Assembly (NCBI GenBank): GCA_902594515.1
Contig: CACJML010000002.1
Span: forward strand, 128,911-192,910
Reading direction: 5' to 3'
Source: an uncultured SAR86 cluster bacterium
GTDB taxonomy: Bacteria; Pseudomonadota; Gammaproteobacteria; Magnimaribacterales; D2472
Length of the DNA stretch: 64,000 nt
In this document: piece by piece, positions 4,934 through 62,155 of the stretch
Layout: every line of letters starts with the position of its first letter
Numbering within the stretch: the first letter of the stretch is position 1
The notes under the pieces: model-generated
The model's database searches: none
Seen by the model: only the letters and a program-made list of their open reading frames with translations
Told to the model about the DNA's origin: nothing
Position numbers and translations under genes: made by a program

Positions 4934-5361
4934 AAATTTTCAATTCCTCTATTTGCTAATTCGTCTGCTTTTTCATTTCCTGGATTTCCAGAGTGACCTT
5001 TCACCCACTCCCACGCAATATTATGTTTGCTAACTAAGTTATCAAGTTGAATCCATAAGTCTTTATTTTTAACATCCTTTTTATTGGCAGTTTTCCAATT
5101 ATTTTTTTTCCAATTATGAATCCATGAATTAATGCCATCCATTACATACTTTGAATCTGTAAAAACTTTAACGGAACACGGCTCTTTAAGAGTATTTAAT
5201 CCTTCAATAACTGCTCTGAGTTCCATTTTATTATTGGTAGTATCAAGTTCTCCACCATACAACTCTTTAACTTCCTCTTGATAGCTTATTAAGACACCCC
5301 ACCCCCCGGTTCCAGGATTACCTCTACAAGCTCCATCTGTATAAATAATTACGTCTTTCAT
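4930..5361 (-). CDS. rnhA: Ribonuclease HI
   Basis: '[17 protein letters not shown]', 'TTNNKMEL', '[18 protein letters not shown]'. Confidence 0.97.
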
Positions 5362-5377
5362 GAGTTAAAATATAACA

Positions 5378-6148
5378 ATGTTAAAGATTTCTTATATCCA
5401 AGCTTATAGTGATAATTATATTTGGTTAATTCAAACTAATGAAGGAAATACTTTAGTTGATCCGGGTGATGCAGGCCCAGTTCAAGATTTCATTCAAAAA
5501 GAAGAAATAGAGATCGATGATATATTGATAACACACCATCATTTTGATCATATTGGTGGCCTTAAAACACTCAAACCGCTGATTAAGGGATCAATCATTG
5601 GTCCAGAAAGTAAAAATATTAATGACTTAGATTATAAAGTTAAAGATGGCGAAACAATCAACACAATAGGTTTGAAATTCTCTGTAATCGAAATTCCCGG
5701 TCATACCCTTGATCACATTGCATTTTACTCAAATACAAAAAAAGATGTGCTTTTCTGTGGCGATACAATTTTCTCAGGAGGTTGCGGCAGAGTTTTTGAA
5801 GGTACTTTTAAACAAATGAATGACTCAATCAATATCCTTAGTCAACTACCAAAGTCTACAGAAATATATTGCGCGCATGAATATACTCTCTCAAACTTAA
5901 TATTTGCAAAGCAAGTTGAACCTAAAAATGATGAATTGAATCATTATTATGATGAAGTTATTATCATGCGAGAGAATGATGTCTCTACAATTCCAACAAC
6001 ATTAAATAGAGAACTGCAAATTAATCCATTTTTAAGAGTTTCTAATGCTAGTCTAAGAGAATCCATCAGTGATAAACTTAACAATTCAGTGCAATTATCT
6101 GACACTGAAATATTTAAGTTTCTTAGAACATGGAAAGATTCTTTGTAG
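5378..6148 (+). CDS. gloB: Hydroxyacylglutathione hydrolase (glyoxalase II)
   Basis: 'THHHFDHIGG', 'PGHTLDH', 'LFCGDT', 'CAHEYT'; divergent from rnhA as in many gammaproteobacteria. Confidence 0.94.
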   Translation: MLKISYIQAYSDNYIWLIQTNEGNTLVDPGDAGPVQDFIQKEEIEIDDILITHHHFDHIGGLKTLKPLIKGSIIGPESKNINDLDYKVKDGETINTIGLKFSVIEIPGHTLDHIAFYSNTKKDVLFCGDTIFSGGCGRVFEGTFKQMNDSINILSQLPKSTEIYCAHEYTLSNLIFAKQVEPKNDELNHYYDEVIIMRENDVSTIPTTLNRELQINPFLRVSNASLRESISDKLNNSVQLSDTEIFKFLRTWKDSL

Positions 6149-7590
6149 TATTTTTTACTCTTTTTATTGCTTACGGCTGTTCCAACTTTAATATAATTCC
6201 TGCAAGGCCCTATGTAGATATTGAGCCATCTAGAGAAGTATTAGTTCCTGAGGTTAAATATAACAACATTTGGGAAAGAATTTTTAAAGAAAATAACTTC
6301 GTAGATGATCCACTTCCAGATCAGACTGAAAAATATGTAAAAAGGTTCGTTAAAAATAAGAAGCACTTTAATGAGTTAATTTTAAATGGAGAGTATTACC
6401 TGTTTGAAGTTCTAGAGGAGCTTGATCGGTATAGGCTTCCATCAGAGTTTGCATTACTTCCTTACATAGAAAGTAACTATGATCCTTTTTCAATATCATC
6501 ATCTGGTGCCGTGGGCTTGTGGCAACTTATGCCAACAACGGGCAAAATTTATAATTTAGAAAAAACATGGTGGGTTGAGGGGCGTCATGACCCAATTGAA
6601 TCAACAAAGGCAGCGGTAAAATATCTAGCATATCTTTATAATAGATTTGATAAGAATCCTACTCTTACATTAATTGCTTATCATGCTGGTCCTACCTATT
6701 TAGAAAAACAAATAAGGATCCTTGAGAGTCGAGGAAGAGAAGTTACCTTGAGTAACCTTAAGCTATCAAAAGAAAGTTTTAATTATGTTCCAAAGTTTTT
6801 GGCAATTAACAAAATTATTAAAGATCCATACAAATATGGTGTTAATTTACCTAATCTTCCAAATGAAAAAGTCATAGAGAAAATCCAAATTGAAGGTCAA
6901 GTAGAAATGCTCCCATTCAGTGAATTTACTGGGGTAACACCAGAATTTTTATACCAGCTCAATGCTGGCTATACAAAGTGGGCAACACCCCCGACAAATA
7001 ATACTGTCCTATTTTTACCAATTGAAAGATTGGAGGCTATTGAGCAGGATATAAATAATTATTTTCAAGAAAACCCAATAAGATGGATGACTCATAATGT
7101 ATCATCAGGAGAAACTTTATGGGACATAGCAAAGCTTTATGATGTAGCTTTAGATGATTTAAAATTAGTAAATTCTAAATCAAATAAGAGCCTCCTCTCT
7201 ATTAATGAAACATTATTAGTACCACTAGGAGATCCAAAAATTACAACTTTTATTCCATATCAAACTCATATTGTGAGTGAAGGAGATACCTTGTGGAGTC
7301 TAGGAAGAAAATATGACATAGCACCAATTGAAATTGCCAGAAATAATCAATTATCTATCAATGGCGTTCTCTCTGTTGGGGTTGCTTTAAATATTGGCAC
7401 GGGGAATATTGCAAGATCAATGCAAGCAAAAAAACGCTCAATTCTTTACAGCGTTAAGCAGGGTGACAATTTATATAAAATTTCTGAATTATTTAATATT
7501 GAGATAAGCGAAATTATGGAGCTTAACAATTTATCTTCTAATGACTTAAGTCCTGGACAAATATTAAAGCTGATAATCAGTGCAATTTAA
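6130..7590 (+). CDS. mltD: Membrane-bound lytic murein transglycosylase D (SLT domain + LysM repeats)
   Basis: Lipobox 'AYGC', SLT 'PYIESNY...GAVGLWQLMP', three LysM-like repeats ('VSSGETLWDIA','VSEGDTLWSLG','VKQGDNLYKIS'); downstream of gloB. Confidence 0.88.
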   Translation: MERFFVVFFTLFIAYGCSNFNIIPARPYVDIEPSREVLVPEVKYNNIWERIFKENNFVDDPLPDQTEKYVKRFVKNKKHFNELILNGEYYLFEVLEELDRYRLPSEFALLPYIESNYDPFSISSSGAVGLWQLMPTTGKIYNLEKTWWVEGRHDPIESTKAAVKYLAYLYNRFDKNPTLTLIAYHAGPTYLEKQIRILESRGREVTLSNLKLSKESFNYVPKFLAINKIIKDPYKYGVNLPNLPNEKVIEKIQIEGQVEMLPFSEFTGVTPEFLYQLNAGYTKWATPPTNNTVLFLPIERLEAIEQDINNYFQENPIRWMTHNVSSGETLWDIAKLYDVALDDLKLVNSKSNKSLLSINETLLVPLGDPKITTFIPYQTHIVSEGDTLWSLGRKYDIAPIEIARNNQLSINGVLSVGVALNIGTGNIARSMQAKKRSILYSVKQGDNLYKISELFNIEISEIMELNNLSSNDLSPGQILKLIISAI

Positions 7591-7591
7591 A

Positions 7592-9366: not shown

Positions 9367-9367
9367 A

Positions 9368-10972
9368 TCAGTCTCTTTGAAGGTACACGAATTTAGGATG
9401 ATGAACATCAAGGATGTTTGGATGCCATCCTCTTACATCTTGACTTAATTGATATTGTCTAACGTATGTATAAATCGGAATTATCGGCATCTCATCAATT
9501 AAAAGCCTCTCAGCTTCCATAAAAACTTTATAGCGCTCCTCTTGATTATTGATAGAATTTGCAAGCTCTATCAATTGATCATATTCTGTATTTTCCCAGC
9601 CTGTTTTATTGTTCCCTCGGTTTGGTCGCAAAGTATCAAGAAAAGTATTAGGATCCTCATAATCTCCTATCCAGCCTGCTCTAGAGACCTGAAAATCTCC
9701 AACCATTTCTCTTGCAAGATAGACCTTCCAGTCCTGATTCACAAGTTCAACATCAATACCAAGGTTTTGTTGCCACATTTGTTGAATTGCTAATGCAATT
9801 TTTCTATGTCCCTCTTGGGTATTAAATAAAATCTCTAACTTCGGAAAGCCTTCTCCATTTGGGTAACCAGCCGCAGCAAGTAAAGTGTTTGCAAGAACTG
9901 GATCAAATGGAACTTCAGTATCGGGATAGTAGTTTGCTGAACCTGGTGGAGTAAAAGAATAAGCTGGCTTTTGACCGCACTTTGAGACTTTTTCTACAAT
10001 CTGAGTTCTGTTAATTGCGTATGCCAAGGCTTTCCTGACATTAACGTCTTTGAGAACTTCATTAGTGGTATTAATTCTATAAAAGTAGGTTCCCATATAG
10101 GGATCAATGCGTAAGTTCGGATTATTCTCCTCAAGATAAACAGGACATTTTTCTAGTGGCACTACATTTGTTACATGAAGTTGTCCAGCTCTAAACATTC
10201 TGTCTTCGGTTGATTCATTAGAAACAGGATAAAAATGTATTTCGTTTAACCTTACCTTGCTTGCGTCCCAGTAAGTAGAACTCTTTTCAACAACAATTTT
10301 TTTGTTAAGCTCCCAGGTTTTTAGATTAAACGGTCCGTTGCAAACAAAATTTCCAGGCCTAGTCCACTCACCATTCCTGTCATCGATTGAGCCATATGCA
10401 AGGACAGTATCCTTATGCACCGGATAAGTAGAATAATGTGATAAAAGTTTAATAAAAAACGCTGTCGGCGAGTGAAGCTCTACTTCTAAAGTCTTATTCG
10501 AAATAGCTTTGACTCCTACTTGGTCAAAATCGGTTATTACTCCCTGATGAAACTCCTTAGCATTTTTAACATAATAAAGCATATCAGGATATTGAGATCC
10601 TAAAGATGCTGTTAAGATTCTTTGCCATGACCAAACAAAGTCTTCTGCAGTAACAGGCTCTCCATTTGACCAACTTGCATCTTCATGAATATTAAAGATA
10701 TAAGTTTTACCGTCTTGAGAAATTTCCCATGATTTTGCAACCCCAGGTAAATTAGGTCCGCCTTTAGGATTATTGATTGTTAATCCTTCACAAAGAGCAG
10801 TCAATAAATGATTTTCAGGAACGCCCGTAACGATATGTGGATCAATTCCTTGTGGTTCAGTGCCATTACCAAAATGAAACACTTGATCACGAAGGCCTGC
10901 ATCAACTGGTGATTCATTATTTGAACAACTTGCAAGGAGCAGTAATAAGACAAATGTATATTGAATTTTCAC
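9368..10972 (-). CDS. oppA: Oligopeptide ABC transporter substrate-binding lipoprotein (family 5)
   Basis: Lipobox 'LLASC', 'EPQGIDP', family-5 signature 'PGVAKSWEISQDGKTYIFNI', 'GWIGDY'; GTG start. Confidence 0.9.
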   Translation of the reverse strand: MKIQYTFVLLLLLASCSNNESPVDAGLRDQVFHFGNGTEPQGIDPHIVTGVPENHLLTALCEGLTINNPKGGPNLPGVAKSWEISQDGKTYIFNIHEDASWSNGEPVTAEDFVWSWQRILTASLGSQYPDMLYYVKNAKEFHQGVITDFDQVGVKAISNKTLEVELHSPTAFFIKLLSHYSTYPVHKDTVLAYGSIDDRNGEWTRPGNFVCNGPFNLKTWELNKKIVVEKSSTYWDASKVRLNEIHFYPVSNESTEDRMFRAGQLHVTNVVPLEKCPVYLEENNPNLRIDPYMGTYFYRINTTNEVLKDVNVRKALAYAINRTQIVEKVSKCGQKPAYSFTPPGSANYYPDTEVPFDPVLANTLLAAAGYPNGEGFPKLEILFNTQEGHRKIALAIQQMWQQNLGIDVELVNQDWKVYLAREMVGDFQVSRAGWIGDYEDPNTFLDTLRPNRGNNKTGWENTEYDQLIELANSINNQEERYKVFMEAERLLIDEMPIIPIYTYVRQYQLSQDVRGWHPNILDVHHPKFVYLQRD

Positions 10973-11027
10973 ATGCGTATTATATGAAAAAGCATCAAAA
11001 AAAACTGCCTTAACGTGCTCTATATAT

Positions 11028-18445: not shown

Positions 18446-20292
18446 GTTTGAGGTTCCAAATTTCTCAAGTTGACCTTGACATTTTCTTTCAGTTTTTGAT
18501 CAATCAATATCGCATTTTGCTGATTTGCGTATTGTGAAACGATATCTCGATAACCTTCAATCTTTTGAGCAATCTCTTCATCGCTCAAAACGTTTGAGTT
18601 AGACACAAAAACCCAATATTGATTATTATCACTTGCAGTTTGTGTTAATGAATCTCCCGGATTTAATTTAAAAATTGCATCTATGATATCTCTCGGTAAC
18701 AAAGAAGAATATCGAGTTACCTTTTGATAGCTTTCTTTTACAAAGCCCTGAGGCAAATCATCATTATTTTCTTCTTTGAGCCGAGTAAATGCACTCGATT
18801 GCATTTCAGCAATTAATTCATCTGCCTTTTGAGCACGTACTTCGTTAGTTGCTTTTTGACGAGAGTCTTCGTAAGACATCATCTTTGGTGGATAAATTGA
18901 ACTGAGCTCAATAATATAAAAACCATCATCAACTTCAATGACCTCAATGTCACCCTCAATAAACCTTGAATCAAAGAAGGGTTGAGCTTCAGTAATAACG
19001 CTATCACTGAATTCAGATTCCGAAACCTGTTTAGTGTTTTCCGATTTTAGCTTAAGGTTATCAATTACGGAGCTGAAGCTACTTCCTGAAAGGATAAGCT
19101 CCTCTGCATCGATCATTGCTTGATCCATCAGTGATCTAGCTTCTTCACTGATAAACTCTTGCCTTAAGTTCTCTGCAAATGATTTTTTTGATTCGGCTTC
19201 AGATTTTAGGATCTCAGTAACTTTAATAATATGTAATGTTTCACCCAGATCAATTGGTGTTGAAATTTGGTTAATTGAAAGTCCATTTATAGCATCTTCA
19301 AATTCTTGAGGAAAAGCATCACCGCTTGAATAACCAAGATCGCCCCCTACTTCGATTGAGGCCTCATCATCACTGTATTTTTTAACAGCCTCAGAAAAGT
19401 CAAGAGCTCCACTCATAAGATCTTTATAAACATCTTGCGCTTTCCTAACAGCTTCACCATCGGTTTTAGTAAACATAATATGTGAGATTCTGTTTTGGGT
19501 ACCAATCTGAATCTCTTCAAGATATTCCTCATAAGCGCTATCGATGAGTTGGTTATCGATATCTAGATTCTCTGAAAAGCTCTCAAGTGAGTTAAAAGCA
19601 TAATTAAACTCTCTTTTTTCGTCTGAAAGAAATAACAATTGATTAGCATCATAAAATTCTTTTGCTTCTTCGTTGGACGCACTTTGAAGTGAAATTATTT
19701 CATCACGATCAGATTTAATGAATTTAATATCCTTTGTTGCTTCTGCAAAAGCTGTAAAGTCAATTAAATCATTATTTAGAACAAAGTTTGATTGAGAAAT
19801 TGTATTAATAAGATTATCAGCGGAAATAGATGTTAAAACAAACTGTAGATACTCATCTGGGATCATGCCAGCTCCTCTTATAGCTGCCTCAAAAATTGAT
19901 TGATCAAATTTTCCACTTTCATCCAAGAAAGTTTCTTCCCTAATAATGGTTCGTTTAACATCATCTAGGGAAATGTCTAAGTTATTATCAAAAGCTACTG
20001 ATTCAATTATCTTTTGATTAATTATTTGGGACCTTAAAATGTTTAATAGCTCTTGTTCTTCAAGCTGATCAGTTGAAAAGTTTTCACCAAAAATAGATTT
20101 GTATCTCTCTTCAACTCTCACAGTTGCATTATTAACATCCAATTGAGTAACTTCGATTCCATTCACATTTCCATAATTTGAAAAAAGAGTATTAAATGAG
20201 GACACACCAGTAAAAATAAAAGGTAGTGCGCACACTCCCACAATTACATAAAGTGTCTTTCCTGAAAGAAGATTTCTGAATGAATTCAACAT
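18442..20292 (-). CDS. ppiD: Periplasmic chaperone / peptidyl-prolyl isomerase D
   Basis: N-terminal TM anchor, SurA-like domain, parvulin-like '[11 protein letters not shown]...GGDLG'; canonical position after hupB. Confidence 0.85.
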
Positions 20293-20329
20293 GCTTAATA
20301 TTAATTATTAAAACCAAAGAGAATCATAC

Positions 20330-26328: not shown

Positions 26329-26346
26329 AAGTTTATATCTAATTGA

Positions 26347-26424
26347 TGGGGCGAGCGATGGGGTTCGAACCCACGGCCTCCGGAGCCACAATCCAGCGCT
26401 CTAACCAACTGAGCTACGCCCGCC
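26347..26424 (-). tRNA. tRNA-His (GUG), with encoded G-1 and CCA
   Basis: Reverse complement GGCGGGCGTAGCTCAGTTGGTTAGAGCGCTGGATTGTGGCTCCGGAGGCCGTGGGTTCGAACCCCATCGCTCGCCCCA; anticodon GTG, C73 discriminator. Confidence 0.95.
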
Positions 26425-29469: not shown

Positions 29470-29478
29470 AATAAAAAA

Positions 29479-29555
<77 letters not shown>

Positions 29556-33481: not shown

Positions 33482-33533
33482 AGTGGGCACATTATAACGA
33501 CTAAAAAGTCTAATTTTAAAGGCCAATGCCTAA

Positions 33534-37342: not shown

Positions 37343-37360
37343 ACTCAATACAGCGCACAA

Positions 37361-37438
37361 TGGCGGACCGGACGGGACTCGAACCCGCGACCTCCTGCGT
37401 GACAGGCAGGCATTCTAACCAGACTGAACTACCGGTCC
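37361..37438 (-). tRNA. tRNA-Asp (GUC)
   Basis: Reverse complement GGACCGGTAGTTCAGTCTGGTTAGAATGCCTGCCTGTCACGCAGGAGGTCGCGGGTTCGAGTCCCGTCCGGTCCGCCA. Confidence 0.95.
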
Positions 37439-39746: not shown

Positions 39747-39773
39747 GATATACTAGCTTAGAAAATATCAAAT

Positions 39774-41896: not shown

Positions 41897-42331
41897 AGAT
41901 AGGATCTCTTCTATAGCTGTTGCATCGATTGGTCTTTTGCTTGCAAATACAACCTCGCCATTGGGATTAATAAAAAATGTAGCAGGTAGTGATTGAGGGG
42001 TCTCAATACCCCAGATAGTTTTAGGGTGCGTCAATAGCGAAGGATATGTGTGGCCAAATCGATCAAGCTGCTCTTCGAGCTCTTCGCCCTCCAAACGATC
42101 AAAATTAAATCCAAAGACTTTGATGTCAGGATTTAAATTTGAAAATTTAGCAAGCTCAGGAATTTCTTTAAGGCATGGCGGACACCAGTCTGCCCAATAG
42201 TTCACAATCACCCAATGACCTTTAAGAGATTCTGAGGATATTGAGCGGGTATCATGTAAATCTATGTCGCCTTGTGAGCAAGACAGCATCACGAGCAAAA
42301 CAGTATACAAAGATATTTTTTTACCATTCAT
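41876..42331 (-). CDS. TlpA/ResA-like thioredoxin lipoprotein
   Basis: Lipobox 'MLSC', 'VNYWADWCPPCLKEIP', 'LPATFFI'; start moved to 42331. Confidence 0.88.
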   Translation of the reverse strand: MNGKKISLYTVLLVMLSCSQGDIDLHDTRSISSESLKGHWVIVNYWADWCPPCLKEIPELAKFSNLNPDIKVFGFNFDRLEGEELEEQLDRFGHTYPSLLTHPKTIWGIETPQSLPATFFINPNGEVVFASKRPIDATAIEEILSSLQKSF

Positions 42332-42356
42332 CAAAGATGCATTGTAAGATTGTTGC

Positions 42357-42944
42357 ATGAATGATCAATACCTATTGATACTTTTTTATTCAGCTTCTGG
42401 GAGTGTAAAAAATCTTGCGCATGCCATTGCCGATGGTGCTGAAGCCTCTGGAATGCCAACTAAAATTAGGACTGTTCCCAGGGTATCACCTAACTCAAAA
42501 GCAACTGAGCCTGAAGAGCCTGTTGAGGGTGAAATCTATTGCACAAAAGAAGAGCTCCAACATTGTTCAGGCCTTGCTATAGGCTCGCCTACAAGATTTG
42601 GTTCCATGGCAGCTCCAATGAAGCATTTTCTTGATTCAACCGGTGATTTATGGGCTGCGAATGCATTGGAAAATAAACCAGGGATGGCATTTACATCAAC
42701 AAGCTCGATGCATGGTGGGCAAGAGATTACTTTGTGGAATATTCTAACTTACATGCTGCATCAAGGGATGATGATTATTGGTGCGCCCTACTCGATTGAT
42801 GCGCTGCATCAAACGAAAAGTGGTGGCACACCTTATGGAGCAAGTCATGTAAATACAGCAGGGCCTGCACTAACTAATGATGAGCGTGCTATAGCAGAAG
42901 CTGCTGGTAAAAGATTGGCACACACGATAAAGCAGGTGTCTTAG
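42357..42944 (+). CDS. wrbA: NAD(P)H:quinone oxidoreductase WrbA
   Basis: 'GLAIGSPTRFGSMA', 'FTSTSSMHGGQE', 'GGTPYGASH'. Confidence 0.92.
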   Translation: MNDQYLLILFYSASGSVKNLAHAIADGAEASGMPTKIRTVPRVSPNSKATEPEEPVEGEIYCTKEELQHCSGLAIGSPTRFGSMAAPMKHFLDSTGDLWAANALENKPGMAFTSTSSMHGGQEITLWNILTYMLHQGMMIIGAPYSIDALHQTKSGGTPYGASHVNTAGPALTNDERAIAEAAGKRLAHTIKQVS

Positions 42945-43274: not shown

Positions 43275-43310
43275 ATTAATCAGCCTTTTTAAAAAAATTA
43301 GAATATTTTT

Positions 43311-45443
43311 ATGCAAAAATTATCACTACCATTAATCTTAATATTTACTGTAAGTCTCTCTGCTGAGCCACTTATTATTCAGCCAGGACTCCCTGGGACT
43401 GTATCTAAAGAAATTAATTCCGAAGAAGCGATAAATATTGCTAATACTGGGTTTACTAAAGATGATACGGTTTTCATGAACCACATGATCGTTCATCATC
43501 AACAAGCGCTTACACTTTCTAGACTTGCACCTAATCGAACCAATACCCAAGAAATATTAGATTTAGCTGGAAGAATTGACGTTTCTCAGGAGGATGAGAT
43601 TTCATTCATGCAAGGCTGGCTTGAAGAACGAAATATTGAAGTTCATGCCTATATGTCTATGCATCACATGAAAATGATGGGTATGGCCAGCGATCAAGAT
43701 ATTGCAGAGCTTTCAAACAGCAAAGGCATGGAATTCGATGAATTGTTTTTAAGATTAATGATTGCTCACCATGAGGGTGCATTGGATATGGTGAAGGAGC
43801 TTAAAAGACAACCCGGCTCTGCTTATGATCCTTTAATGTTTGAATTTGTTTCAGATTTATCTAATGACCAAGGCGTTGAAATTGAGAGAATGAATACTCT
43901 TCTAACTGGTCTTTCAAAAGATCCAAGAGCATCCCTCAAAGGCGGCCTGTACCATGCCGAGGAAGCCATTCTGAATTTAGACCTTGTTCAATCTTTAAAA
44001 AAACCTGCAGGCTTTTTTGATCCCTCTAACCCATTAAATGAAAGGTTATCCAATGAGGACAAAGAGGATGAAGAAGAAAAACCGCTTGCTGAACGCTCAA
44101 GAAACAGTCGATCTCCAATGCTAAGTTTCTCGAATACAGATATGGCTTTTAGCGGTAACGTTATGGTTGCTGGTAGTTATCATGGATTTAATATCTATAA
44201 TTTAGATAATCAAGGTCATGCCAAATTGGTCTCTTCGGTAATTTGCCCTGGAGGTCAAGGCGATGTTTCGATTGTAGGTAATCTTTTGATAATGTCGGTT
44301 GAGCAAAATCGTGGAAGAATCGATTGTGGTCTTCAAGGGGCAGGCACGGAACCAAATCCAGACAGGTTTAGAGGTATTAGAATTTTTGATATTTCAGATT
44401 TAAAAAGACCCCAACAAGTTGGTGCAGTCCAAACATGTCGTGGGTCGCATACGCATTCAGTTGTCAGTGGTCCAGATGAAAATGGCATCATTATTGTTTA
44501 TAACTCAGGAACTTCAAGCGTTAGAGATCAAGAAGAGCTTGAAAGCTGCTTTGAAGCCATCCCGGGTGACAATCGTACCGCCCTCTTTCGAATCGATGTC
44601 ATAGAGATTCCTGTTGCCGATCCGTCGCAAGCCAAAATTGTTAAAAGTCCGACTGTGTTTGCTGATCCTGAAACTGGCGCATTAGCAGGCTTATGGAGAG
44701 GTGGAGATCACGGAGATGATACGCAAGACACTTCAAGAACCGATGAATGTCATGACATAACGGTATTCCCATCAAAAAATCTTGCAGCCGGAGCCTGCTC
44801 AGGCAATGGAATTTTATTTGATATTTCAGATCCTTATAATCCTAGGCGCTTAGATGTAGTAACGGATGTGGGTTTTGCTTATTGGCATTCTGCTACCTTT
44901 AATAACGCTGGAGATAAGATTGTCTTCACCGATGAATGGGGTGGCGGTGGCAGACCACGTTGTAGAGCCTGGGATCCAATGGATTGGGGTGCAAATGCTA
45001 TCTACGATATTGTTGACAATAAACTGGTTTTTAAAAGTCATTACAAAATGCCTGCGCCACAAACTGAAACAGAAAACTGCGTCGCTCATAACGGCTCCAT
45101 CATACCCATCCCTAACCGTGATATTTTTGTCCAAGCTTGGTATCAAGGCGGTCTTTCTGTTATGGATTTTACCGATTCTGAAAATCCGATAGAGATAGGT
45201 TATTTTGATCGTGGACCCATTTCCGAGGAACAACTCATCAGTGGAGGTTATTGGTCAACATATTATTACGAGGGCAAAATTTACGGGACAGAAATTGCTC
45301 GAGGCATTGATGTTTTTGAGATGATCCCAAGTCAATTCATTACCCAAAAAGAAATTGATATGGCTGCTAAAGCCTATCCTGCAGTAGGTGATGAAAGATT
45401 GTTCAACCCGCAACAACAATTTCCACTTACTTGGCCAAAATAA
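43311..45443 (+). CDS. Secreted DUF305 (ferritin-like) + LVIVD-repeat fusion protein
   Basis: Signal peptide; two 'MIxHHxxA' motifs (MIVHHQQA, MIAHHEGA) with a Met/His-rich linker; C-terminal repeats 'IRIFDISD','ILFDISDP','VMDFTDSENPIEIGYFD' and many Cys. Confidence 0.8.
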   Translation: MQKLSLPLILIFTVSLSAEPLIIQPGLPGTVSKEINSEEAINIANTGFTKDDTVFMNHMIVHHQQALTLSRLAPNRTNTQEILDLAGRIDVSQEDEISFMQGWLEERNIEVHAYMSMHHMKMMGMASDQDIAELSNSKGMEFDELFLRLMIAHHEGALDMVKELKRQPGSAYDPLMFEFVSDLSNDQGVEIERMNTLLTGLSKDPRASLKGGLYHAEEAILNLDLVQSLKKPAGFFDPSNPLNERLSNEDKEDEEEKPLAERSRNSRSPMLSFSNTDMAFSGNVMVAGSYHGFNIYNLDNQGHAKLVSSVICPGGQGDVSIVGNLLIMSVEQNRGRIDCGLQGAGTEPNPDRFRGIRIFDISDLKRPQQVGAVQTCRGSHTHSVVSGPDENGIIIVYNSGTSSVRDQEELESCFEAIPGDNRTALFRIDVIEIPVADPSQAKIVKSPTVFADPETGALAGLWRGGDHGDDTQDTSRTDECHDITVFPSKNLAAGACSGNGILFDISDPYNPRRLDVVTDVGFAYWHSATFNNAGDKIVFTDEWGGGGRPRCRAWDPMDWGANAIYDIVDNKLVFKSHYKMPAPQTETENCVAHNGSIIPIPNRDIFVQAWYQGGLSVMDFTDSENPIEIGYFDRGPISEEQLISGGYWSTYYYEGKIYGTEIARGIDVFEMIPSQFITQKEIDMAAKAYPAVGDERLFNPQQQFPLTWPK

Positions 45444-45458: not shown

Positions 45459-45510
45459 TTGACAAGTTCTAAATGTAAAGTAAACTTTACATGTCAAATA
45501 AACTTTACAT
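45459..45510 (+). promoter_or_regulatory. Sigma70 promoter overlapped by tandem 20-bp palindromic operators
   Basis: TTGACA(45459)-N16-TAAACT; ATGTAAAG-TAAA-CTTTACAT (45473-45492) and ATGTCAAA-TAAA-CTTTACAT (45491-45510). Confidence 0.75.
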
Positions 45511-45518
45511 TATAAATT

Positions 45519-45974
45519 ATGGCTAAAATTACTCACCGTGGAATGTGGATCAAGATTAGTTCTCTTAATCCTGAGGATAAAAAAAACTACTTAACATCAA
45601 TGGCTCTTTTTATGATTGGTGCCTTTGCATGGGGTGTCCACCTTGCGTCTGTGGGTTTTTTTAATGATGTACCTGATACCGAAAATGCGACCTCCTCGGT
45701 CTATAACTTTGCAAGATTAATAGTGGTTGTCTCGTGGGCAATCGCAACCCTTTTTTACATTAAATTTTTAAAAACTCAAGATGAGCTAATTATTAAATGG
45801 CATGAATTTATTGGGAGTTGGGGTGCAATAGGTTTTCTTAGCTTTGGAATGATGATGTCACTTTTATCCCCCTATCTAAACTTTAAACCTGGATTTTATG
45901 AACTTTTCCTAGCCTTTTGTGCGGGAACGGTGATTGGTGGACTTAGGTTTCACAACAAGTATTTAAGTGAATGA
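45519..45974 (+). CDS. Hypothetical 4-TM membrane protein co-transcribed with an XRE regulator
   Basis: Four hydrophobic segments with central 'QDEL'; ATGA overlap with the downstream HTH gene. Confidence 0.7.
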   Translation: MAKITHRGMWIKISSLNPEDKKNYLTSMALFMIGAFAWGVHLASVGFFNDVPDTENATSSVYNFARLIVVVSWAIATLFYIKFLKTQDELIIKWHEFIGSWGAIGFLSFGMMMSLLSPYLNFKPGFYELFLAFCAGTVIGGLRFHNKYLSE

Positions 45975-49479: not shown

Positions 49480-50493
49480 CTAATTAAACTCCACCTGCAA
49501 TGATTCGGTATTACTGTCATAAATAGGATTAATGAATCTTCTGGAACTTTGCAGTTCACGCATGAGTTCTTGTGGTTCAAACCGTAGCTTTAGATTCATT
49601 TGTGTCTCTCCCCTCATGATCGAGGTAGTTTGAAATGTTCTAATCGAAAAAATTTTTTTCACTTCATTTAGAAACATCTCATGCTCTGAGTAATTATCAA
49701 TGCCTGTTACCACAAATCTAAAAGTATTTTGATCTTGTTCTGAAAAATTAATTGCCAGGACTTCATCAATGTAATTATTAATCTGATCATCAAGAAATAA
49801 AATTAACTGCTCTTGTTGCAAATTAACAAGTGATTTAAAGTCACCGTTTATGCTCCATGAGTTAATTCCAGTTTTTATCAATTCAATATTTACTACTGCC
49901 TCTGTATTGCCTTTGGAAAGAAAATAGTCAGATGGATTTTCATAATTGAGTTTATTTTTGAGATTTTGGATGTCTTGAAGATCAAACTCAGGAACATCAA
50001 GAAAAATACCTCTTGTTTCAGTTAAATTTTTAAGCAAATTAGATAACTTTGTTTTTAATTCTGTATCATCACCATCAATACCTAAAAATTCAGGCTGAGA
50101 AGTACCGTCATCAATATTAATTAAAAAACTAATGCTGGGTCGATTGAATCCAATGATTGGAAAAGCATTAGCATCGAATAACTCAATAACTTCATCTTCT
50201 AAAAATTTAACCCTAAGATACCCTTCACCATCAATTTCTTCCGTAGTATAGCTGGCGACATAACTGGTCTTATTGATTTGCTGACGGTTAATTTCATTTC
50301 TAAATTTAAGGCTGGATGAGCCTGAAAGTTTAATCAGCAGCTTATCAAAAGCTCGATTCAAACCATAGTTAACATTGGTGTACTCTTCAGTGCTGATTCG
50401 AACTTCAAATAAGGATGAAAATTCACGTGCATTTATCTCAACTGCATTTAAAACTAATATCAAAATAGGTAAGATTAATTTATCTTTCATCAC
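49480..50493 (-). CDS. DUF2066-like exported protein
   Basis: Signal peptide, 'LFEVRI', 'RAFDKLLIKLSG'; sits in the conserved purM/hda neighbourhood. Confidence 0.6.
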   Translation of the reverse strand: MMKDKLILPILILVLNAVEINAREFSSLFEVRISTEEYTNVNYGLNRAFDKLLIKLSGSSSLKFRNEINRQQINKTSYVASYTTEEIDGEGYLRVKFLEDEVIELFDANAFPIIGFNRPSISFLINIDDGTSQPEFLGIDGDDTELKTKLSNLLKNLTETRGIFLDVPEFDLQDIQNLKNKLNYENPSDYFLSKGNTEAVVNIELIKTGINSWSINGDFKSLVNLQQEQLILFLDDQINNYIDEVLAINFSEQDQNTFRFVVTGIDNYSEHEMFLNEVKKIFSIRTFQTTSIMRGETQMNLKLRFEPQELMRELQSSRRFINPIYDSNTESLQVEFN

Positions 50494-50505
50494 TGAATAT
50501 TGTAA

Positions 50506-53988: not shown

Positions 53989-55595
53989 TCTTTAGTGCTA
54001 ATAGAATCAGGTTCAATTGTGCCATCAAATGATTTAAGAATCTCTGAAATTATTGGCTGCTTTTCAAGCTCTTCAATAGTGGACTGTAAATTTTGATTAG
54101 CAATTTTTTCTTTTAATAAAGAGGGTGAGTTAGTCACGTTACCCTCCTCGATCACAACTTCCGGCCTCACTTTAAAATGCTCCTTACATTTATCACTAAA
54201 CTCCTCAAGCAATGCTGATGTTGGAGACGAAAAATTCTTAGGCTTCACTAAGACCAGCTTATTGCCGATTACATCTTTGAATTCAAGCTCACTGAAAAGT
54301 TGATAACAGATGCCATTTAAACCTAATTGCTCAAAATCTTTTGCCCAGTCGCTAATGTAAAGAGATTCCACAGACGCTGCTTTGCCGTTGGTTGCAGAAG
54401 CTTTAATTTTTTTATCTGGCTGTTTTAATTTAACTTCCTCTTTTACCTTCTTCTCAGGAGGTTTACTCACATCAGCTTTTATCTGGGGTTTAGGATTTTT
54501 TTTTTCGTTTATTTGAGGCTTGGACTCATTTAAGGGGTGAAAGGATAGCATTCTCAATACGCACATTTCTACAGCCTGGTAAGGACTCGGATGAACAGAA
54601 AATTTCTCTAAAGCATTAATGGCTATTTGATATAAAAGTTGTAGCAGTTCACCGTCAACAGAATTTGCAAGCCTAACAAGATCCTCATCCTCAGATCCAA
54701 GTTGTTGCGTCATGGTTAATTGGTGCATTAGGTCTATCAATGCCTCAATCACTTTTTGATAATCGACCTGTAGCTCTAAGATACGCTGTAACGAATGGTG
54801 TGCGCCCTCTCCATTGCCTGCGAGAATATGCTCAACCAACTCAAATAAATAGACATCATCAATGGTGCCCAGCAATTCCTTCACTTGGCTGGTTTCAAGT
54901 TTTCCAGCTCCGAATGCGATTGCTTGATCAAGCAAGGTCAAACCATCGCGAACCGATCCTTGTGCACTTTGTGCAATCAATTGAGTGGTTGCGGGATCAT
55001 GTTCAATGCCCTCTTTATCTAAAATGGTATTCATATGATTGGCTATTTGAGTCTGCGCTACCGCTTTAAGGTTGAGTTGCAAGCATCGAGAAAGCACTGT
55101 CTTAGGAACCTTATCTAGTTCGGTGGTCGCCATCAAAAAAATCATATGCGGAGGTGGTTCCTCTAAAGTTTTTAAAAGTGCATTAAACGAGCTTTTTGAT
55201 AGCATGTGCACTTCATCAATGAGGTAGATTTTATAATTTGCATTTGCGGGTTTATACACTGCAGATTCAAGCAAATCTCGCATATCATCCACACCCGTTC
55301 TTGAGGCAGCATCAACTTCAATAAATTCTAAATGATGACCCGATTTAATTTCCTCACATGCCGAACAGGTATCGCAGGGCTCTGATGCCGCACCACGATT
55401 ATGACAGTTGAGGGCTTTAGCAAGGATTCTTGCTATGGTGGTCTTTCCAACTCCTCGAGTGCCACTAAAAATGAAAGCCTGATGCAGGTTTCCGCTTATT
55501 AAACTATTCTGAAGGGCTTGTAAAATATGGTCTTGGCCAACCACTTCTGCAAATAAAGCAGGTCTGTATTTACGCGCTAATACCTCATATGACAT
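53985..55595 (-). CDS. dnaX: DNA polymerase III subunit tau/gamma
   Basis: 'YEVLARKYRP', Walker A 'GTRGVGKTT', Zn module, 'IDEVHMLS', SRC motif 'LSRCL'. Confidence 0.96.
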   Translation of the reverse strand: MSYEVLARKYRPALFAEVVGQDHILQALQNSLISGNLHQAFIFSGTRGVGKTTIARILAKALNCHNRGAASEPCDTCSACEEIKSGHHLEFIEVDAASRTGVDDMRDLLESAVYKPANANYKIYLIDEVHMLSKSSFNALLKTLEEPPPHMIFLMATTELDKVPKTVLSRCLQLNLKAVAQTQIANHMNTILDKEGIEHDPATTQLIAQSAQGSVRDGLTLLDQAIAFGAGKLETSQVKELLGTIDDVYLFELVEHILAGNGEGAHHSLQRILELQVDYQKVIEALIDLMHQLTMTQQLGSEDEDLVRLANSVDGELLQLLYQIAINALEKFSVHPSPYQAVEMCVLRMLSFHPLNESKPQINEKKNPKPQIKADVSKPPEKKVKEEVKLKQPDKKIKASATNGKAASVESLYISDWAKDFEQLGLNGICYQLFSELEFKDVIGNKLVLVKPKNFSSPTSALLEEFSDKCKEHFKVRPEVVIEEGNVTNSPSLLKEKIANQNLQSTIEELEKQPIISEILKSFDGTIEPDSISTKE

Positions 55596-55609
55596 AGCGT
55601 TTTATGATA

Positions 55610-56056
55610 TCACGACTGATCTAAAACTGATTCGATTTGAGCCTGAGAAAACCCTCGATTATAGAGAAATTGTTTACGCTTCATGATCTCTTTAAAATCT
55701 TCGGTTGGTTGCTTATATTTTTTTTCTAACTCATGTCTGAGAATCCCATCCCAGCCTTCAAAGGCATCAATTGCATCAGCAATTTCAATGCTTCCAACTT
55801 GTTTTTGTTGCAGTTCCATTTTAATGCGTTGAGGTCCAAAACCTTTCTTTGCTCGAGCCATCACATACATCTCAGCAAAACGAGCGTCATCTAATAGTTT
55901 ATTGAGCTTTAACTTATCAAGCGTTTCATTGATAAGTTCTTGTGCATCAGGATAACGCTTGATTAATTTTATATACAGTTCACCCCTCGAGTGTTCTCGC
56001 CTTGAAATCAAGTCGAGGGATTTGTTATAGATCAGTGAACTTAGATCGTCATTCAT
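55610..56056 (-). CDS. recX: Regulatory protein RecX
   Basis: 'LISRREHSRGEL', 'LDDARFAE', 'GFGPQRIKMELQQK', 'FLYNRGFS'. Confidence 0.9.
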   Translation of the reverse strand: MNDDLSSLIYNKSLDLISRREHSRGELYIKLIKRYPDAQELINETLDKLKLNKLLDDARFAEMYVMARAKKGFGPQRIKMELQQKQVGSIEIADAIDAFEGWDGILRHELEKKYKQPTEDFKEIMKRKQFLYNRGFSQAQIESVLDQS

Positions 56057-57329: not shown

Positions 57330-57589
57330 TTGTATTCCCCTTTTAATTTCAGCTCTTTAATGGGTGATACGCCATGCTTTTTTTTATATGCGTATGACCT
57401 CTCAAAAGCCTCATGTTGAAATCCGCTCAAACGTGCTTTGATCTCTTCAAGATTTTTTGCTTTCCATTCCTGATCAGTTTGTGGACTTTTCCAAGTCTGA
57501 ATTTCTGCACGGGTGCGACCACAACCGTAGCAATAATCAGTTACAGGATCATGCAAACAAACTGAGATGCAAGGCGACAAAACGGACAT
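57326..57589 (-). CDS. DUF1289-like Cys-rich small protein
   Basis: 'SPCISVC...CYGCGRTRAEIQTW'. Confidence 0.85.
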   Translation of the reverse strand: MSVLSPCISVCLHDPVTDYCYGCGRTRAEIQTWKSPQTDQEWKAKNLEEIKARLSGFQHEAFERSYAYKKKHGVSPIKELKLKGEYK

Positions 57590-57630
57590 ATCAGAAGGTT
57601 AATCAAAAACCTTTCAGATATCAAAAAAAT

Positions 57631-58221: not shown

Positions 58222-58245
58222 AAGGGGGCTGTGCCCCCTTTTTTT
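58222..58245 (+). terminator. Rho-independent terminator after hsp20
   Basis: AAGGGGGC-TGT-GCCCCC followed by T7. Confidence 0.88.
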
Positions 58246-58267
58246 ATGAAATGTTAAAGTACGCCCT

Positions 58268-60217
58268 ATGAAAATCTTGTTGGTTCTTTTGTCTTGCTTG
58301 CAGTTATCTCTACTGGCAGGAGAAAGTGTGAATTCAGGCCATGCTGAAGTAAGACTGATTAGTAATCTTCAATCACAACTAGATGAAACCTTTTATCTGG
58401 GCATTGAGATGGCAATGGATAGGGGGTGGCATACTTATTGGCAAAATCCAGGTGATTCTGGAGGTGCTTTTGATGTTATCTGGGAAAGTCCTGAGGGTTT
58501 TATTATTGAAAACGTCAGTTGGCCAACACCAGAGTTGATTCCCTACCCGCCTTTAATGACTTATGGCTATGAGGATTATGTGCTTTTTCCTTTTCAGGTT
58601 TTTAGATCAGCCAATTCAGATCTTGGAGTCATTAAGGCAACCATTAATTTCCTAATTTGTGCAGATATTTGTGTCCCGGAATCAGCCTCAATTGAAATTG
58701 ATTTATCCACAGAACAACCCAGCTCATTAATTGCAGATGCAATTAAGAGTGTTCCAAACAGGGTGATGCCGGTATCTTTAGATGCAAACAATCAAAACCT
58801 TAACCTTGGATTTGCTTTCGATGGCACCATCAATGACGCTTATTTTTTTACAGACAATCAAGGCGACATCAAACATTCTTCTTCACAAAAATTAAGACGG
58901 CTGGGTGGTAATAATTATGAACTCATATTAGAGCAAGCCTCTTTAACCCCCAATCAACTCAGCGGGATCCTAAAAATTAATGATTCAGGTTTTATCGTGA
59001 TGTCCACAGCAGTTGATGAATCCATCACAAATTCATTTTCTATTAATCTTTTTCAAGCACTTTTGTTTGCATTTATTGGAGGTCTGATACTTAACCTCAT
59101 GCCATGTGTATTCCCAGTTATTGCTCTCAAAGCTCTGAGTTTTATCAAAATTAGTGAGCATGCTCCACACCAAGCTAAGTGGCATGGCTGGAGCTACACT
59201 GTTGGGGTGCTCAGCAGCTTCGTCGCCATTGCCTTAGTTTTAATTGGGTTAAAGGCTGCGGGAGAATCTTTGGGATGGGGATTTCAGCTCCAAGCACCTG
59301 AAATTGTTGGAGGCCTTGCCTTACTCATGGTGCTGATAGGATTTATCTTGCTAAGCGATATCAATATTGGTACCTCGCTCACTTCTGTGGGCAGTAAAAT
59401 GCAACAAGGTCAATCGTATTCCAATTCATTTGCAACCGGAGTTCTTGCTGTGGTTGTTGCATCCCCATGTACCGCACCTTTTATGGGTGCAGCTCTTGGG
59501 TTTGCACTCGTACAACCTACCGCAATGAGTTTAATAATTTTTATTATGTTAGGACTGGGTTTTGCCCTGCCTTATTTAATGCTTTCCATTGTTCCAAGTT
59601 TGGTTGCCTGGCTTCCAAAACCCGGTGCATGGATGGAAACTTTTAAGCAGATCATGGCTTTTCCAATGTTTGCCACTGCGATCTGGTTGATATGGGTTTT
59701 TGCACAACAAACTTCGCCAACCGATCTAGTTATTTTAATGGGTCTTATTTTGGTCATGGGTTTTGGGTTATGGTTTGGCAGGTCACGAAATCGAACACAA
59801 AATATTGGGATCAGTGTGATCGTTCTTTTGTCAGTGATTTTTGGTCTTGCGAATTTAGATAAAACCTTTACCCAAAAATTGGCTGAAGATGATTCACTCA
59901 CCTGGCAAGCAGGCATTGAAGAGCAACTTCAAGCGCAACAACAAGCCTATTTCATTAACTTTACTGCTGCTTGGTGCATCACGTGTCAGGCAAATGAACA
60001 AATTGCTTTAAGCAGAGTCTCTGTAAAAGAGTTTTTTAATACCAATAACATTAAATACATTAAAGCCGATTGGACCAACCGCAACGATGATATTGCAAAT
60101 ACGCTAAGCTCTTACAACCGGTCAGGTGTCCCTCTTTATGTTTTCTGGAAACCCGGAATGCAAACCCCAAAAATCTTGCCAGCAATACTCACAGAGGGTT
60201 ATATTTTAGGTCTATGA
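58268..60217 (+). CDS. DsbD-family thiol:disulfide interchange protein
   Basis: N-domain 'GWHTYWQNPGDSG...CADICVPE', TM 'NLMPCVFPV' and 'SPCTAPFMG', C-terminal thioredoxin 'FTAAWCITCQANE'. Confidence 0.9.
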   Translation: MKILLVLLSCLQLSLLAGESVNSGHAEVRLISNLQSQLDETFYLGIEMAMDRGWHTYWQNPGDSGGAFDVIWESPEGFIIENVSWPTPELIPYPPLMTYGYEDYVLFPFQVFRSANSDLGVIKATINFLICADICVPESASIEIDLSTEQPSSLIADAIKSVPNRVMPVSLDANNQNLNLGFAFDGTINDAYFFTDNQGDIKHSSSQKLRRLGGNNYELILEQASLTPNQLSGILKINDSGFIVMSTAVDESITNSFSINLFQALLFAFIGGLILNLMPCVFPVIALKALSFIKISEHAPHQAKWHGWSYTVGVLSSFVAIALVLIGLKAAGESLGWGFQLQAPEIVGGLALLMVLIGFILLSDINIGTSLTSVGSKMQQGQSYSNSFATGVLAVVVASPCTAPFMGAALGFALVQPTAMSLIIFIMLGLGFALPYLMLSIVPSLVAWLPKPGAWMETFKQIMAFPMFATAIWLIWVFAQQTSPTDLVILMGLILVMGFGLWFGRSRNRTQNIGISVIVLLSVIFGLANLDKTFTQKLAEDDSLTWQAGIEEQLQAQQQAYFINFTAAWCITCQANEQIALSRVSVKEFFNTNNIKYIKADWTNRNDDIANTLSSYNRSGVPLYVFWKPGMQTPKILPAILTEGYILGL

Positions 60218-60840: not shown

Positions 60841-61349
60841 AAGATATATTTTGACCATTCCTTATCAGGGAATGAATCACTGTTAAATGTGTAGCCATTG
60901 AGCAACGAGCTAAAGGAGGGCTTGATGGGTTCCTTAATAGGAGTGCCGGGTTTATTTGCTTTTTTAAGATTACAAGCCTTACACGCTGTCACGACATTTT
61001 CCCAATTGGAAGGTCCCTTTTTAGATTTTGGAATGACGTGATCTAAGGTTAAATCTTTTTTATCAAAAATTTCAGCACAATACTGGCAGGTATACATATC
61101 CCTCAATAAAACGTTGGATCTTGAAAACTTAACGTAGTTATGAAATTTATGGAATCTTGGCAGCATTAAAATACTTGGAACTTTCATTTCTATGGTCGGT
61201 GAATGCACCACAAAATCTTCATGCTCACGCAGCAAAATCACATTCCGTGTTAAAACTAACTTAATAGCTGTCTTCCAGTTAATAACCGATAAGGGAAAAT
61301 AGCTCACAGGCTTTCCATTCCCATTTAACAGCAGGCAATCTTTAGACAT
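60831..61349 (-). CDS. Stand-alone HNH endonuclease (McrA-like, Zn-binding)
   Basis: 'RDMYTCQYC', 'LTLDHVIPKSKKG...WENVVTACKACNLKK'. Confidence 0.88.
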   Translation of the reverse strand: MSKDCLLLNGNGKPVSYFPLSVINWKTAIKLVLTRNVILLREHEDFVVHSPTIEMKVPSILMLPRFHKFHNYVKFSRSNVLLRDMYTCQYCAEIFDKKDLTLDHVIPKSKKGPSNWENVVTACKACNLKKANKPGTPIKEPIKPSFSSLLNGYTFNSDSFPDKEWSKYIFQS

Positions 61350-61447
61350 TTCGGTAAAGTTTATTTATTTTTCTTGAAGAGTTAATATAGATCGCAAACT
61401 TAGGGGTTACAAGCTGATATTCAGCAATTTACGTAAAATTTACATAA

Positions 61448-62155
61448 ATGATGGAATTTACGCCATTTCAAATGTTCGGGCCACAGCATATGCTGACTAT
61501 ATTCGCTACGTTTGGGATTGCTTTAATCGTTCCTTATTACTTTAAAAACAGTGATATGGAGACAAAAAAAATTGCGGGTATCTCAATTTCAGTCATTATT
61601 GCTTATCAGCTGATCACCCAAGCATTCACCACGTTTACCTTTAATCTGCCTTGGCAAGAAGCACTGCCATTACACATGTGCGATATGTCAGCCATGGCGA
61701 TCATGATTTACTTATTTAATCGTAAAAAAGTATTTTTTAATTGTGCCTTCTTCTGGGGTTTGGGTGGAGCCAGCATGGCGATACTAACGCCTGATGTGCT
61801 CTTTGAGTTCCCAGAACAACAATACCTACCATTTTTTGTGATCCATGGATCAATTCTTTTGGGTGTATTTTATGCTTGCATAGTTCTCAATCAACGCCCA
61901 TTCCTAGCCGATGTGCATAAAGTAATCTTTATCACGATTATTTGCATGGGAATTATTTATGTACTGAATTTGCTTCTAGGTGAAGGTGCAAACTTCTGGT
62001 ATTTATTGAAAAAACCTGAAGCCGGTTCCATCATGGATATGTTCCCCGAACCTCCATTCCATTTATTGATAACCACGCCCATAGGAATTGTGCTGTTTTA
62101 TCTAATTTATTCACCACTATTGATTAAAGACCTCCTGGCTAAGCGTGCAGCATAA
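61448..62155 (+). CDS. YwaF/TIGR02206-like integral membrane protein
   Basis: 'FGPQH', 'LPLHMCD', 'AILTPD', 'HGSI', 'ANFWYL..KP'. Confidence 0.8.
   Translation: MMEFTPFQMFGPQHMLTIFATFGIALIVPYYFKNSDMETKKIAGISISVIIAYQLITQAFTTFTFNLPWQEALPLHMCDMSAMAIMIYLFNRKKVFFNCAFFWGLGGASMAILTPDVLFEFPEQQYLPFFVIHGSILLGVFYACIVLNQRPFLADVHKVIFITIICMGIIYVLNLLLGEGANFWYLLKKPEAGSIMDMFPEPPFHLLITTPIGIVLFYLIYSPLLIKDLLAKRAA

Follow-up and report, generated by a model that had tools for sequence, protein, structure and literature searches.

Conserved -10-like hexamers next to start codons point to probable leaderless mRNAs in the marine SAR86 cluster

The stretch of DNA analyzed here (64,000 nucleotides of an uncultured SAR86 cluster bacterium, assembly GCA_902594515.1, hereafter 'the window') has a G+C content of 37% and is very compact: its 64 kb hold about 65 genes and five tRNAs. 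An Rfam scan of the window returned the five tRNAs and no leader RNAs. The window PurM is 93-94% identical to that of SAR86 cluster single-cell genomes and metagenome-assembled genomes, and dozens more SAR86 loci are syntenic with it. An initial annotation had listed 14 genes of this window in which a hexamer resembling a bacterial -10 promoter box lies 6-9 nucleotides (nt) before a start codon devoid of Shine-Dalgarno sequence (SD), and proposed that their mRNAs are leaderless. The placement of the hexamer, its conservation among SAR86 subclades and its mutual exclusion with SD make this the probable explanation for a core set of genes.

Throughout, Nx means x nt between hexamer and start codon; a box is TAnnnT at N5-9; an SD is any 4-mer of AGGAGG/GGGG at -17 to -4; and a gene is operon-leading when its upstream gene is divergent or at least 40 nt away. 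Start codons were refined by ortholog alignment alone, blind to the motif, retaining the most upstream column common to at least half of the orthologs. A first refinement scheme was dropped: it picked conserved internal Met columns, shifting starts by 50-115 codons.

The check proposed with the initial annotation was positional enrichment of TAnnnT. A box is carried by 13 of the 25 leading genes of the window; when the last 25 or 40 nt are shuffled with dinucleotides preserved, the count is 5.3±2.0. At most two of 2000 shuffles reach the observed count (none for the last 25 nt; p=0.001 for the last 40 nt), and the enrichment is also seen with naive longest open reading frame (ORF) starts. Other five-wide offsets hold TAnnnT in 1 to 8 of the 25 leading genes. 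Among internal genes, 4 of 36 have TAnnnT at N5-9, and two of these four are dnaX and the DUF305 gene, each with its own conserved box. Matches at N5, N6, N7, N8 and N9 number 2, 5, 3, 3 and 1 in the leading genes of the window, with one at N10-13, and the peak at N6-8 appears in leading genes only. A -10 box usually stands 6-8 nt before the transcription start site (TSS), so that this peak lies at the distance expected if transcription starts at the ATG.

Box and SD exclude each other. SD is found in eight of the 25 leading genes, none of which has a box; among SD-less genes, the box is present in 13 of 17 leading versus 4 of 25 internal genes (p=1.3e-4). To follow these signals through the SAR86 cluster we used 80 loci (1.27 Mb) from two collection scans; high synteny reduces them to 115 gene families, so that these loci add depth and not independent genes. 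In the 25 leading families with at least three distinct sequences, TAnnnT peaks at N6 with a frequency of 0.16 versus a background of about 0.035, while internal families have a flat profile. The box is retained in seven of these 25 families and an SD in six; none retains both signals, and twelve have kept neither one. The same family-level test without filtering is borderline for strict TAnnnT (0.215 versus 0.14, p≈0.05). Most 'families' outside the window are junk ORFs of 50-100 amino acids; it is filtering to real, well-sampled families that gives the clear N6 peak.

All 14 hexamers of the initial annotation are present at the announced spacing, and at the announced coordinates where these were given, with no SD in any of the 14 genes. 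Two further boxes, upstream of ppiD and of the gene at 45519, complete the set, and the xseA region is added for its relationship to the EamA box. Features are as follows (hexamer, spacing and start codon read on the strand of the gene):

5359..5377, minus strand, rnhA: tgt-TATATT (5369-5374), N7, ATG (5359-5361)
5366..5380, plus strand, gloB: TAAAAT (5366-5371), N6, ATG
10970..10984, minus strand, oppA-like solute-binding protein: TATAAT (10979-10984), N6, GTG, downstream of the terminator of a TonB-receptor gene
20290..20303, minus strand, ppiD: TAATAT, N5, ATG, a weak case
33479..33496, minus strand, folE: TATAAT (33491-33496), N9, ATG
39741..39755, minus strand, EamA transporter (DMT): TAGTAT (39750-39755), N6, ATG (39741-39743)
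39749..39776, plus strand, xseA: TATACT (39749-39754), which is the EamA box read on the opposite strand, N19, ATG; GAAAAT at N7
42329..42346, minus strand, TlpA-like redoxin (tlpA): TACAAT, N9, ATG (42329-42331), with a -35-like TTGATC at 16 nt
42345..42359, plus strand, WrbA-type FMN reductase (wrbA): TAAGAT, N6, ATG
43299..43313, plus strand, DUF305 protein: TAGAAT (43299-43304), N6, ATG; upstream gene 36 nt away
45506..45521, plus strand, gene 45519 (151 amino acids, no Pfam match): TACATT, N7, ATG, overlapped by a promoter-like TTTACA-16-CATTAT
50488..50504, minus strand, DUF2066 protein: TACAAT, N8, ATG (50488-50490); the box is 1 nt from the divergent purM ATG
55593..55612, minus strand, dnaX: tga-TATCAT (55604-55609, extended -10), N8, ATG; N-terminus MSYEVLARKWRP
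57587..57601, minus strand, DUF1289 protein: TAACCT (weak hexamer), N6, ATG
58222..58270, plus strand, dsbD: hsp20 terminator (58222-58240 plus T-run), tgt-TAAAGT (58255-58260), N7, ATG
61347..61363, minus strand, HNH endonuclease gene: TAAACT (weak hexamer), N8, ATG
61434..61450, plus strand, YwaF/TMEM164 gene: TAAAAT, N8, ATG

Pfam agrees with the names of the 14 genes (RNase H, GloB, SBP_bac_5 for 'oppA', FolE, EamA, TlpA-like redoxin, FMN reductase, DUF305, DUF2066, DnaX, DUF1289, DsbD, HNH and TMEM164/YwaF). It also agrees for the genes that had been set against them as SD-led, namely two TonB-dependent receptors, FabI, HU, proteorhodopsin, Hsp20 and SppA, as well as for GDH and HtpG; all nine do carry an SD. 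By distance, the description as operon-leading fails for dnaX, 14 nt after recX, and for the DUF305 gene with its 36-nt gap. The dnaX box starts right after the recX stop codon, a TGA that provides the TG of its extended -10.

In the initial list, five of six N6 hexamers start with TAA or TAG in frame with the ATG 12 nt downstream (5366-5371, 39750-39755, 42345-42350, 43299-43304 and 57596-57601), while hexamers conserved across clades mostly do not. We considered an in-frame stop at -12 as a general cause of the initial 'TA' and rejected it: there is no decreasing series at N0, 3, 6 and 9, and the conserved boxes are not stops.

The spacing between hexamer and ATG is held in at least seven families (rnhA, EamA, xseA, DUF2066, dnaX, dsbD and oppA) across SAR86 subclades whose PurM or RnhA is 55-72% identical to that of the window, while spacers and flanks vary. 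For rnhA, nATATT (conserved A2 and T6) stands at exactly N7 in 14 of 15 distinct upstream sequences, none of which has an SD. EamA has nAGTAT or AGGTAT at N6 in 13 of 14 distinct sequences, in all subclades and with variable spacers (SD in 2 of 14), and xseA a hexamer with A2 and T6 at N6 in 13 of 15, with no SD. TAnnnT at N5-9 is found without exception, and without SD, in the 20 distinct sequences of DUF2066 (TACAAT at N6 to N8, or TAAAAT at N6 in another clade) and in the 20 of dnaX; every dnaX upstream sequence listed has TGnTATnAT at N6-9, though the gap to recX ranges from 12 to 24 nt. Of 20 dsbD sequences, 14 have a terminator and, after it, TAAAGT, TAACAT or TAAAAT at N7, and one has an SD motif; oppA has TATAAT at N6-7 in 7 of 11.

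Other families are less regular or less well sampled. The gloB hexamer is at N6 in three subclades and at N14-16 in one, never with an SD; folE keeps TATAAT-N9-ATG in L169, L172 and L174; tlpA has TAnnnT at N5-9 in 8 of 10 orthologs with variable spacing. For DUF305 the comparison covers close relatives alone (N6 or N9), DUF1289 has two family members in the sample, and HNH orthologs are ambiguous. Control families keep their SD: 24 of 24 TonB receptors, 12 of 12 hsp20 and 25 of 26 sppA sequences.

The oppA family provides an internal comparison. In L091, L116, L125 and the window (10970-10984), TATAAT stands at N6 from the start codon without SD. In the clade of L111, L122 and L126, TATAAT is located about 20 nt upstream and an AAGGAAA SD is present; this is the sole oppA clade with an SD. 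An SD that appears only where the box has moved about 20 nt upstream is what a promoter role of the box would predict, and across SAR86 subclades oppA looks like a natural leaderless/leadered pair.

The surroundings of several boxes are equally informative. In L091-type oppA, a terminator hairpin and its T-run lead directly into the box (ATATATAAT), followed by 6 nt and the ATG. In the window, the oppA box comes about 50 nt after the TonB-receptor terminator, and the dsbD box starts 14 nt after the hsp20 terminator stem. Divergent start codons are found 12-31 nt apart around a shared box. Terminators that abut the box, together with such close divergent starts, leave no room for another promoter or leader. 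An extended -10 (TG one base upstream of the hexamer) is seen in the window at rnhA, dnaX and dsbD, and not at the other candidates. At L165 7625 (minus strand), and also in L081 and L089, 9 nt separate a terminator hairpin from the start of a 285-amino-acid gene of unassigned function (gggagcatttgctccc-ttttttata-ATG). Neither an SD nor a separate -10 precedes this gene, and TATAATG overlaps the start codon.

For the divergent pair EamA/xseA, the distance between start codons is exactly 18 bp in 17 of 20 loci, with an invariant TATACT between them that reads TATACT-N6-ATG on one strand and AAGTAT-N6-ATG on the other; in L036, where the distance is 15 bp, N6 is kept on both sides. The window departs from this arrangement, with 31 bp instead of 18 bp, the N6 arrangement of xseA having been lost in its lineage. 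For rnhA and gloB in the window, the distance between start codons is 17 bp, the gloB box overlapping the rnhA box on the opposite strand with hexamers offset by 3 bp; for DUF2066 and purM it is 16 bp. We found no convincing box or SD for purM (50506) in any clade, though its ATG lies 1 nt from the conserved DUF2066 TACAAT.

In measured bidirectional promoters, divergent TSSs lie 7-25 bp apart, most often 18 bp, with A-11 and T-7 of the two -10 elements reciprocally paired (Warman et al. 2021, as described in PMC10268837). If start codons are used as a proxy for TSSs, EamA/xseA in 17 of 20 loci, and rnhA/gloB and DUF2066/purM in the window, fit this range. Reciprocal pairing is seen in L005-type EamA/xseA (TATACT/AAGTAT, offset 1), so that this pair would fit the measured geometry exactly if both ATGs are transcription starts; in the window, the offset is 3 bp for rnhA/gloB, and 19 nt separate the xseA box from its ATG. 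More generally, start-to-start distances of divergent pairs in the window are bimodal, with short ones of 16, 17, 26 and 31 bp and long ones of 98 bp or more; the short pairs hold the genes adjacent to a -10, the long pairs most SD-led genes. The folD/UPF0176 pair, 245 bp apart, has neither box nor SD.

We propose that sigma-70-type promoters made of a -10 hexamer with little or no -35 drive a subset of transcription units in this SAR86 genome, which would comprise about one quarter to one half of operon-leading genes and a few genes located just behind another, such as dnaX. These promoters would sometimes take the extended TGn form and sometimes follow the T-run of an upstream terminator. 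With the hexamer 5-9 nt before the start codon, RNA polymerase would start at, or no more than 1-3 nt from, the A of the ATG, leaving no room for an SD, and the ribosome would bind the 5'-terminal AUG directly. In divergent pairs, one nearly symmetric -10 element could serve both directions, with start codons about 18 bp apart. Abundant proteins (TonB receptors, HU, proteorhodopsin, Hsp20, HtpG, GDH, FabI) have long upstream regions and a strong SD. The core idea of the initial annotation, that an SD-less start preceded by a -10 box at TSS distance denotes a leaderless mRNA, thus gains from the spacing peak, the conservation, the terminators and the divergent pairs, from which we infer leaderlessness. 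For the conserved core (rnhA, gloB, oppA, EamA, xseA in relatives, DUF2066, dnaX, dsbD and folE) we regard it as the best-supported explanation and as a likely one: these hexamers would fire, transcription would start at the ATG and translation would be leaderless.

Several observations weigh against this proposal. Full -35/-10 promoters are not enriched (34 found versus 57 expected from shuffles), and among the candidates a -35 is found for tlpA (TTGATC-16-TACAAT) and possibly gene 45519, the others having none. When nucleotide frequencies upstream of every called start were pooled over 40 SAR86 loci, no clear logo emerged, the signal being diluted by redundancy, spurious ORFs and mixed classes. 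Four boxes are poorly conserved or not at all: orthologs of ppiD have an AGGAA-type SD instead in 3 of 4 cases, the wrbA start in the L005 clade is probably a later ATG after AAGGAA, gene 45519 has an SD-like GGAG or GAAGGA in other clades, and the YwaF box is found in 3 of 11 orthologs. TAACCT (DUF1289) and TAAACT (HNH) are weak hexamers with few orthologs. Cases at N8-9 would carry leaders of 1-3 nt, not none (2-3 nt for folE). Escherichia coli translates leaderless GTG poorly, and the window oppA starts with GTG. SD is recognizable in just 11 of the 36 internal genes of the window; SD-less initiation is thus common on internal genes, and SD absence alone proves nothing. Finally, a box is found in four of the 19 leading genes outside the window, which is near chance; seven others have an SD and eight have neither.

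Could SAR86 instead initiate translation independently of SD on ordinary leadered transcripts? Promoters would then lie further upstream inside neighboring genes, 5' untranslated regions (UTRs) would be ordinary or overlap in antisense, and initiation on A/U-rich unstructured leaders would be of the S1 type or coupled, TAnnnT being part of an A/U-rich initiation region. Such initiation exists here: 25 of 36 internal genes have no SD, and purM, folD, tig and UPF0176 have neither signal. The missing -35 boxes speak for it too, as do boxes located 14-17 nt upstream without SD in L089-type gloB and possibly in some dsbD clades, where TACAAT lies 17 nt upstream beside TAACAT at N7. However, a mere A/U-rich region does not account for the hexamer being found in 13 of 17 SD-less leading genes versus 4 of 25 internal ones, nor for A2 and T6 held at one fixed spacing while the A/U-rich spacer varies, nor for TGn in every dnaX sequence listed. 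Little space is left for a leader where the L091-type oppA terminator abuts the box, or where the window dsbD box stands 14 nt past a terminator stem, and an SD appears exactly in those oppA genes whose box sits about 20 nt upstream. We therefore consider leadered initiation an unlikely account of the box genes.

A second alternative is that the hexamers are real promoters and the start codons are wrong, true starts being further downstream or the transcripts serving otherwise, with ordinary leaders. Start calls are indeed uncertain for wrbA, HNH, YwaF, folE and dsbD (with two ATGs in some clades). The folE start is supported by the 210-amino-acid form called in many assemblies and by the conserved TATAAT-N9. 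For EamA, tlpA, DUF2066 and folE, the ATG of the initial annotation lies downstream of the first possible start (GTG, ATG or TTG) of the longest ORF; for the first three, ortholog-based refinement picks that same ATG, in a start column common to the orthologs. A later start is incompatible with rnhA, which has an in-frame TAA at -6 and an RNase H domain from residue 2, and with dnaX, whose N-terminus coincides with that of the family; in rnhA, gloB and oppA, the next in-frame start is 30-50 codons away. This makes misplaced starts a rather remote explanation.

Marginally less probable still is chance helped by selection of cases, since TAnnnT is frequent in 37% G+C DNA with A/T-richer spacers, start choice and a four-position spacing window leave some freedom, about 5 of 25 leading genes are expected to match, for four genes the chosen start lies downstream of the first one possible in the longest ORF, genes outside the window (4 of 19) are near chance and five of six N6 hexamers begin with an in-frame stop; but at most 2 of 2000 shuffles reach the count, naive starts preserve the enrichment, start refinement was blind to the motif, spacing is conserved across distant subclades and the conserved hexamers (TATATT at N7, nAGTAT, TACAAT, TATnAT) are mostly not stops.

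How widespread are these genes? The initial annotation suggested a candidate genome-wide phenomenon, which goes further than the counts allow: the box stands before 13 of the 25 leading genes of the window, is kept by 7 of 25 well-sampled leading families and occurs in 4 of 19 leading genes outside the window. Extension past both window ends and the non-syntenic FolE contig L174 added just ten leading genes, two of them with boxes. The window may be richer in boxes than the SAR86 average; a leaderless share of roughly one quarter to one half of operon-leading genes appears plausible for this genome.

The notion of a two-tier system, SD-led or leaderless, is too simple, since a third and large class initiates translation independently of SD on leadered or coupled mRNA. 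SD is present in 19 of 61 genes (4.7 expected by chance), and the leading genes with neither signal are purM, folD, tig and UPF0176. In many internal genes the start overlaps the preceding stop codon by 4 nt (ATGA); together with the rarity of SD, this suggests widespread translational coupling or SD-independent initiation. The associated claim that SD marks abundant proteins and the box housekeeping ones holds for the most part, with exceptions such as a solute-binding protein in the box class and trigger factor in neither.

Leaderless genes are a known mechanism, of which SAR86 would be a new case; our literature search found no paper linking SAR86 with leaderless mRNAs. TANNNT about 10 nt before the start codon is an established criterion for leaderless genes (Zheng et al. 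2011, PMC3160421), by which 3-5.7% of genes are leaderless in 15 of 239 genomes of Gammaproteobacteria, mostly Xanthomonadales and Legionellales. GeneMarkS-2 defines a 'group C' of genomes, mainly Actinobacteria and Deinococcus-Thermus and 5.6% of Proteobacteria, in which a box lies 6-8 nt from the start and 25-50% of operons are leaderless, alongside SD-led operons (PMC6028130). Leaderless genes with a -10 box near the start codon are also described in Deinococcus-Thermus (PMC12340547). SAR86 resembles group C in its hexamer 6-8 nt before first genes without SD, its coexisting SD-led operons, its poorly conserved -35 and its fraction of candidates (7 of 25 families to 13 of 25 window genes), which is within the reported 25-50% of operons. 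It differs in being a gammaproteobacterial lineage with an A/T-rich, highly streamlined marine genome, and in that its leaderlessness is predicted from sequence. In 'group B' (Bacteroidetes-type) genomes, the same non-SD motif precedes first and internal genes alike (PMC6028130); many SAR86 genes, internal ones included, likewise have no SD, but the SAR86 hexamer is confined to leading genes and has -10 character.

Two promoter types invite comparison. As in extended -10 (TGnTATAAT) promoters, which need no -35, TGn is found at rnhA, dnaX and dsbD; unlike them, most SAR86 candidates have no TGn, and their function is predicted. As in bidirectional sigma-70 promoters, one nearly symmetric -10 would be read on both strands, EamA/xseA having starts 18 bp apart and A-11/T-7 paired. 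In the described bidirectional cases that we draw on, the second transcript is often antisense or non-coding and mRNAs are leadered (PMC10268837), whereas both EamA/xseA products would be leaderless mRNAs, so that the whole intergenic region is 17 nt. The window pairs depart from the bidirectional type in their distances (16, 17, 26 and 31 bp) and in hexamers offset by more than 1 bp. Our literature search found no description of two leaderless genes sharing one bidirectional -10, although single cases may exist.

SAR86 is among the most abundant bacterial groups of the surface ocean. If leaderless transcription units make up one quarter to one half of its total, gene callers relying on an SD would misplace starts in metagenome-assembled SAR86 genomes, models of SAR86 expression would need a second initiation route, and leaderless initiation would emerge as one way for a gammaproteobacterium to compact its genome. 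The 17-nt region between divergent starts would be a minimal natural two-gene control region and would give a functional role to the bidirectionality of -10 elements. The first SAR86 isolate has a coding density of 96.3%, and the paper describing it is silent on promoters, SD and translation signals (PMC11582366). A broader scenario, which we offer tentatively and hold to be possible at best, is that streamlining largely removed 5' UTRs from SAR86, leaving a large, order-wide conserved set of leaderless genes at a level otherwise typical of Actinobacteria and Deinococcus. It would include divergent pairs on a single symmetric -10 in a 17-nt intergenic region (starts 18 bp apart, both genes leaderless), and other mRNAs might obtain a near-leaderless 5' end by processing of an upstream tRNA.

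At three of the four tRNA loci (26326-26423, 29467-29555 and 37340-37438, all on the minus strand), a same-strand protein gene begins so soon after the tRNA that the spacer is very short, and this spacer holds neither SD nor -10 box; close relatives are arranged alike. The spacer measures 18 nt between tRNA-His and tig, 9 nt (TTTTTTATT) between tRNA-Arg and the UPF0176/rhodanese gene, and 18 nt between tRNA-Asp and the first ATG of a DUF4149 ORF; downstream of tRNA-Val there is a terminator instead of a gene. These may be tRNA-mRNA co-transcripts, in which tRNA 3' processing may create a near-leaderless mRNA.

Directly before gene 45519 lies a perfect palindrome, TGTAAAGTAAACTTTACA (45474-45491, plus strand), which overlaps the promoter-like TTTACA-16-CATTAT and is followed by a second copy of AAACTTTACA. 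This palindrome matches the TyrR-box consensus, TGTAAA-N6-TTTACA.

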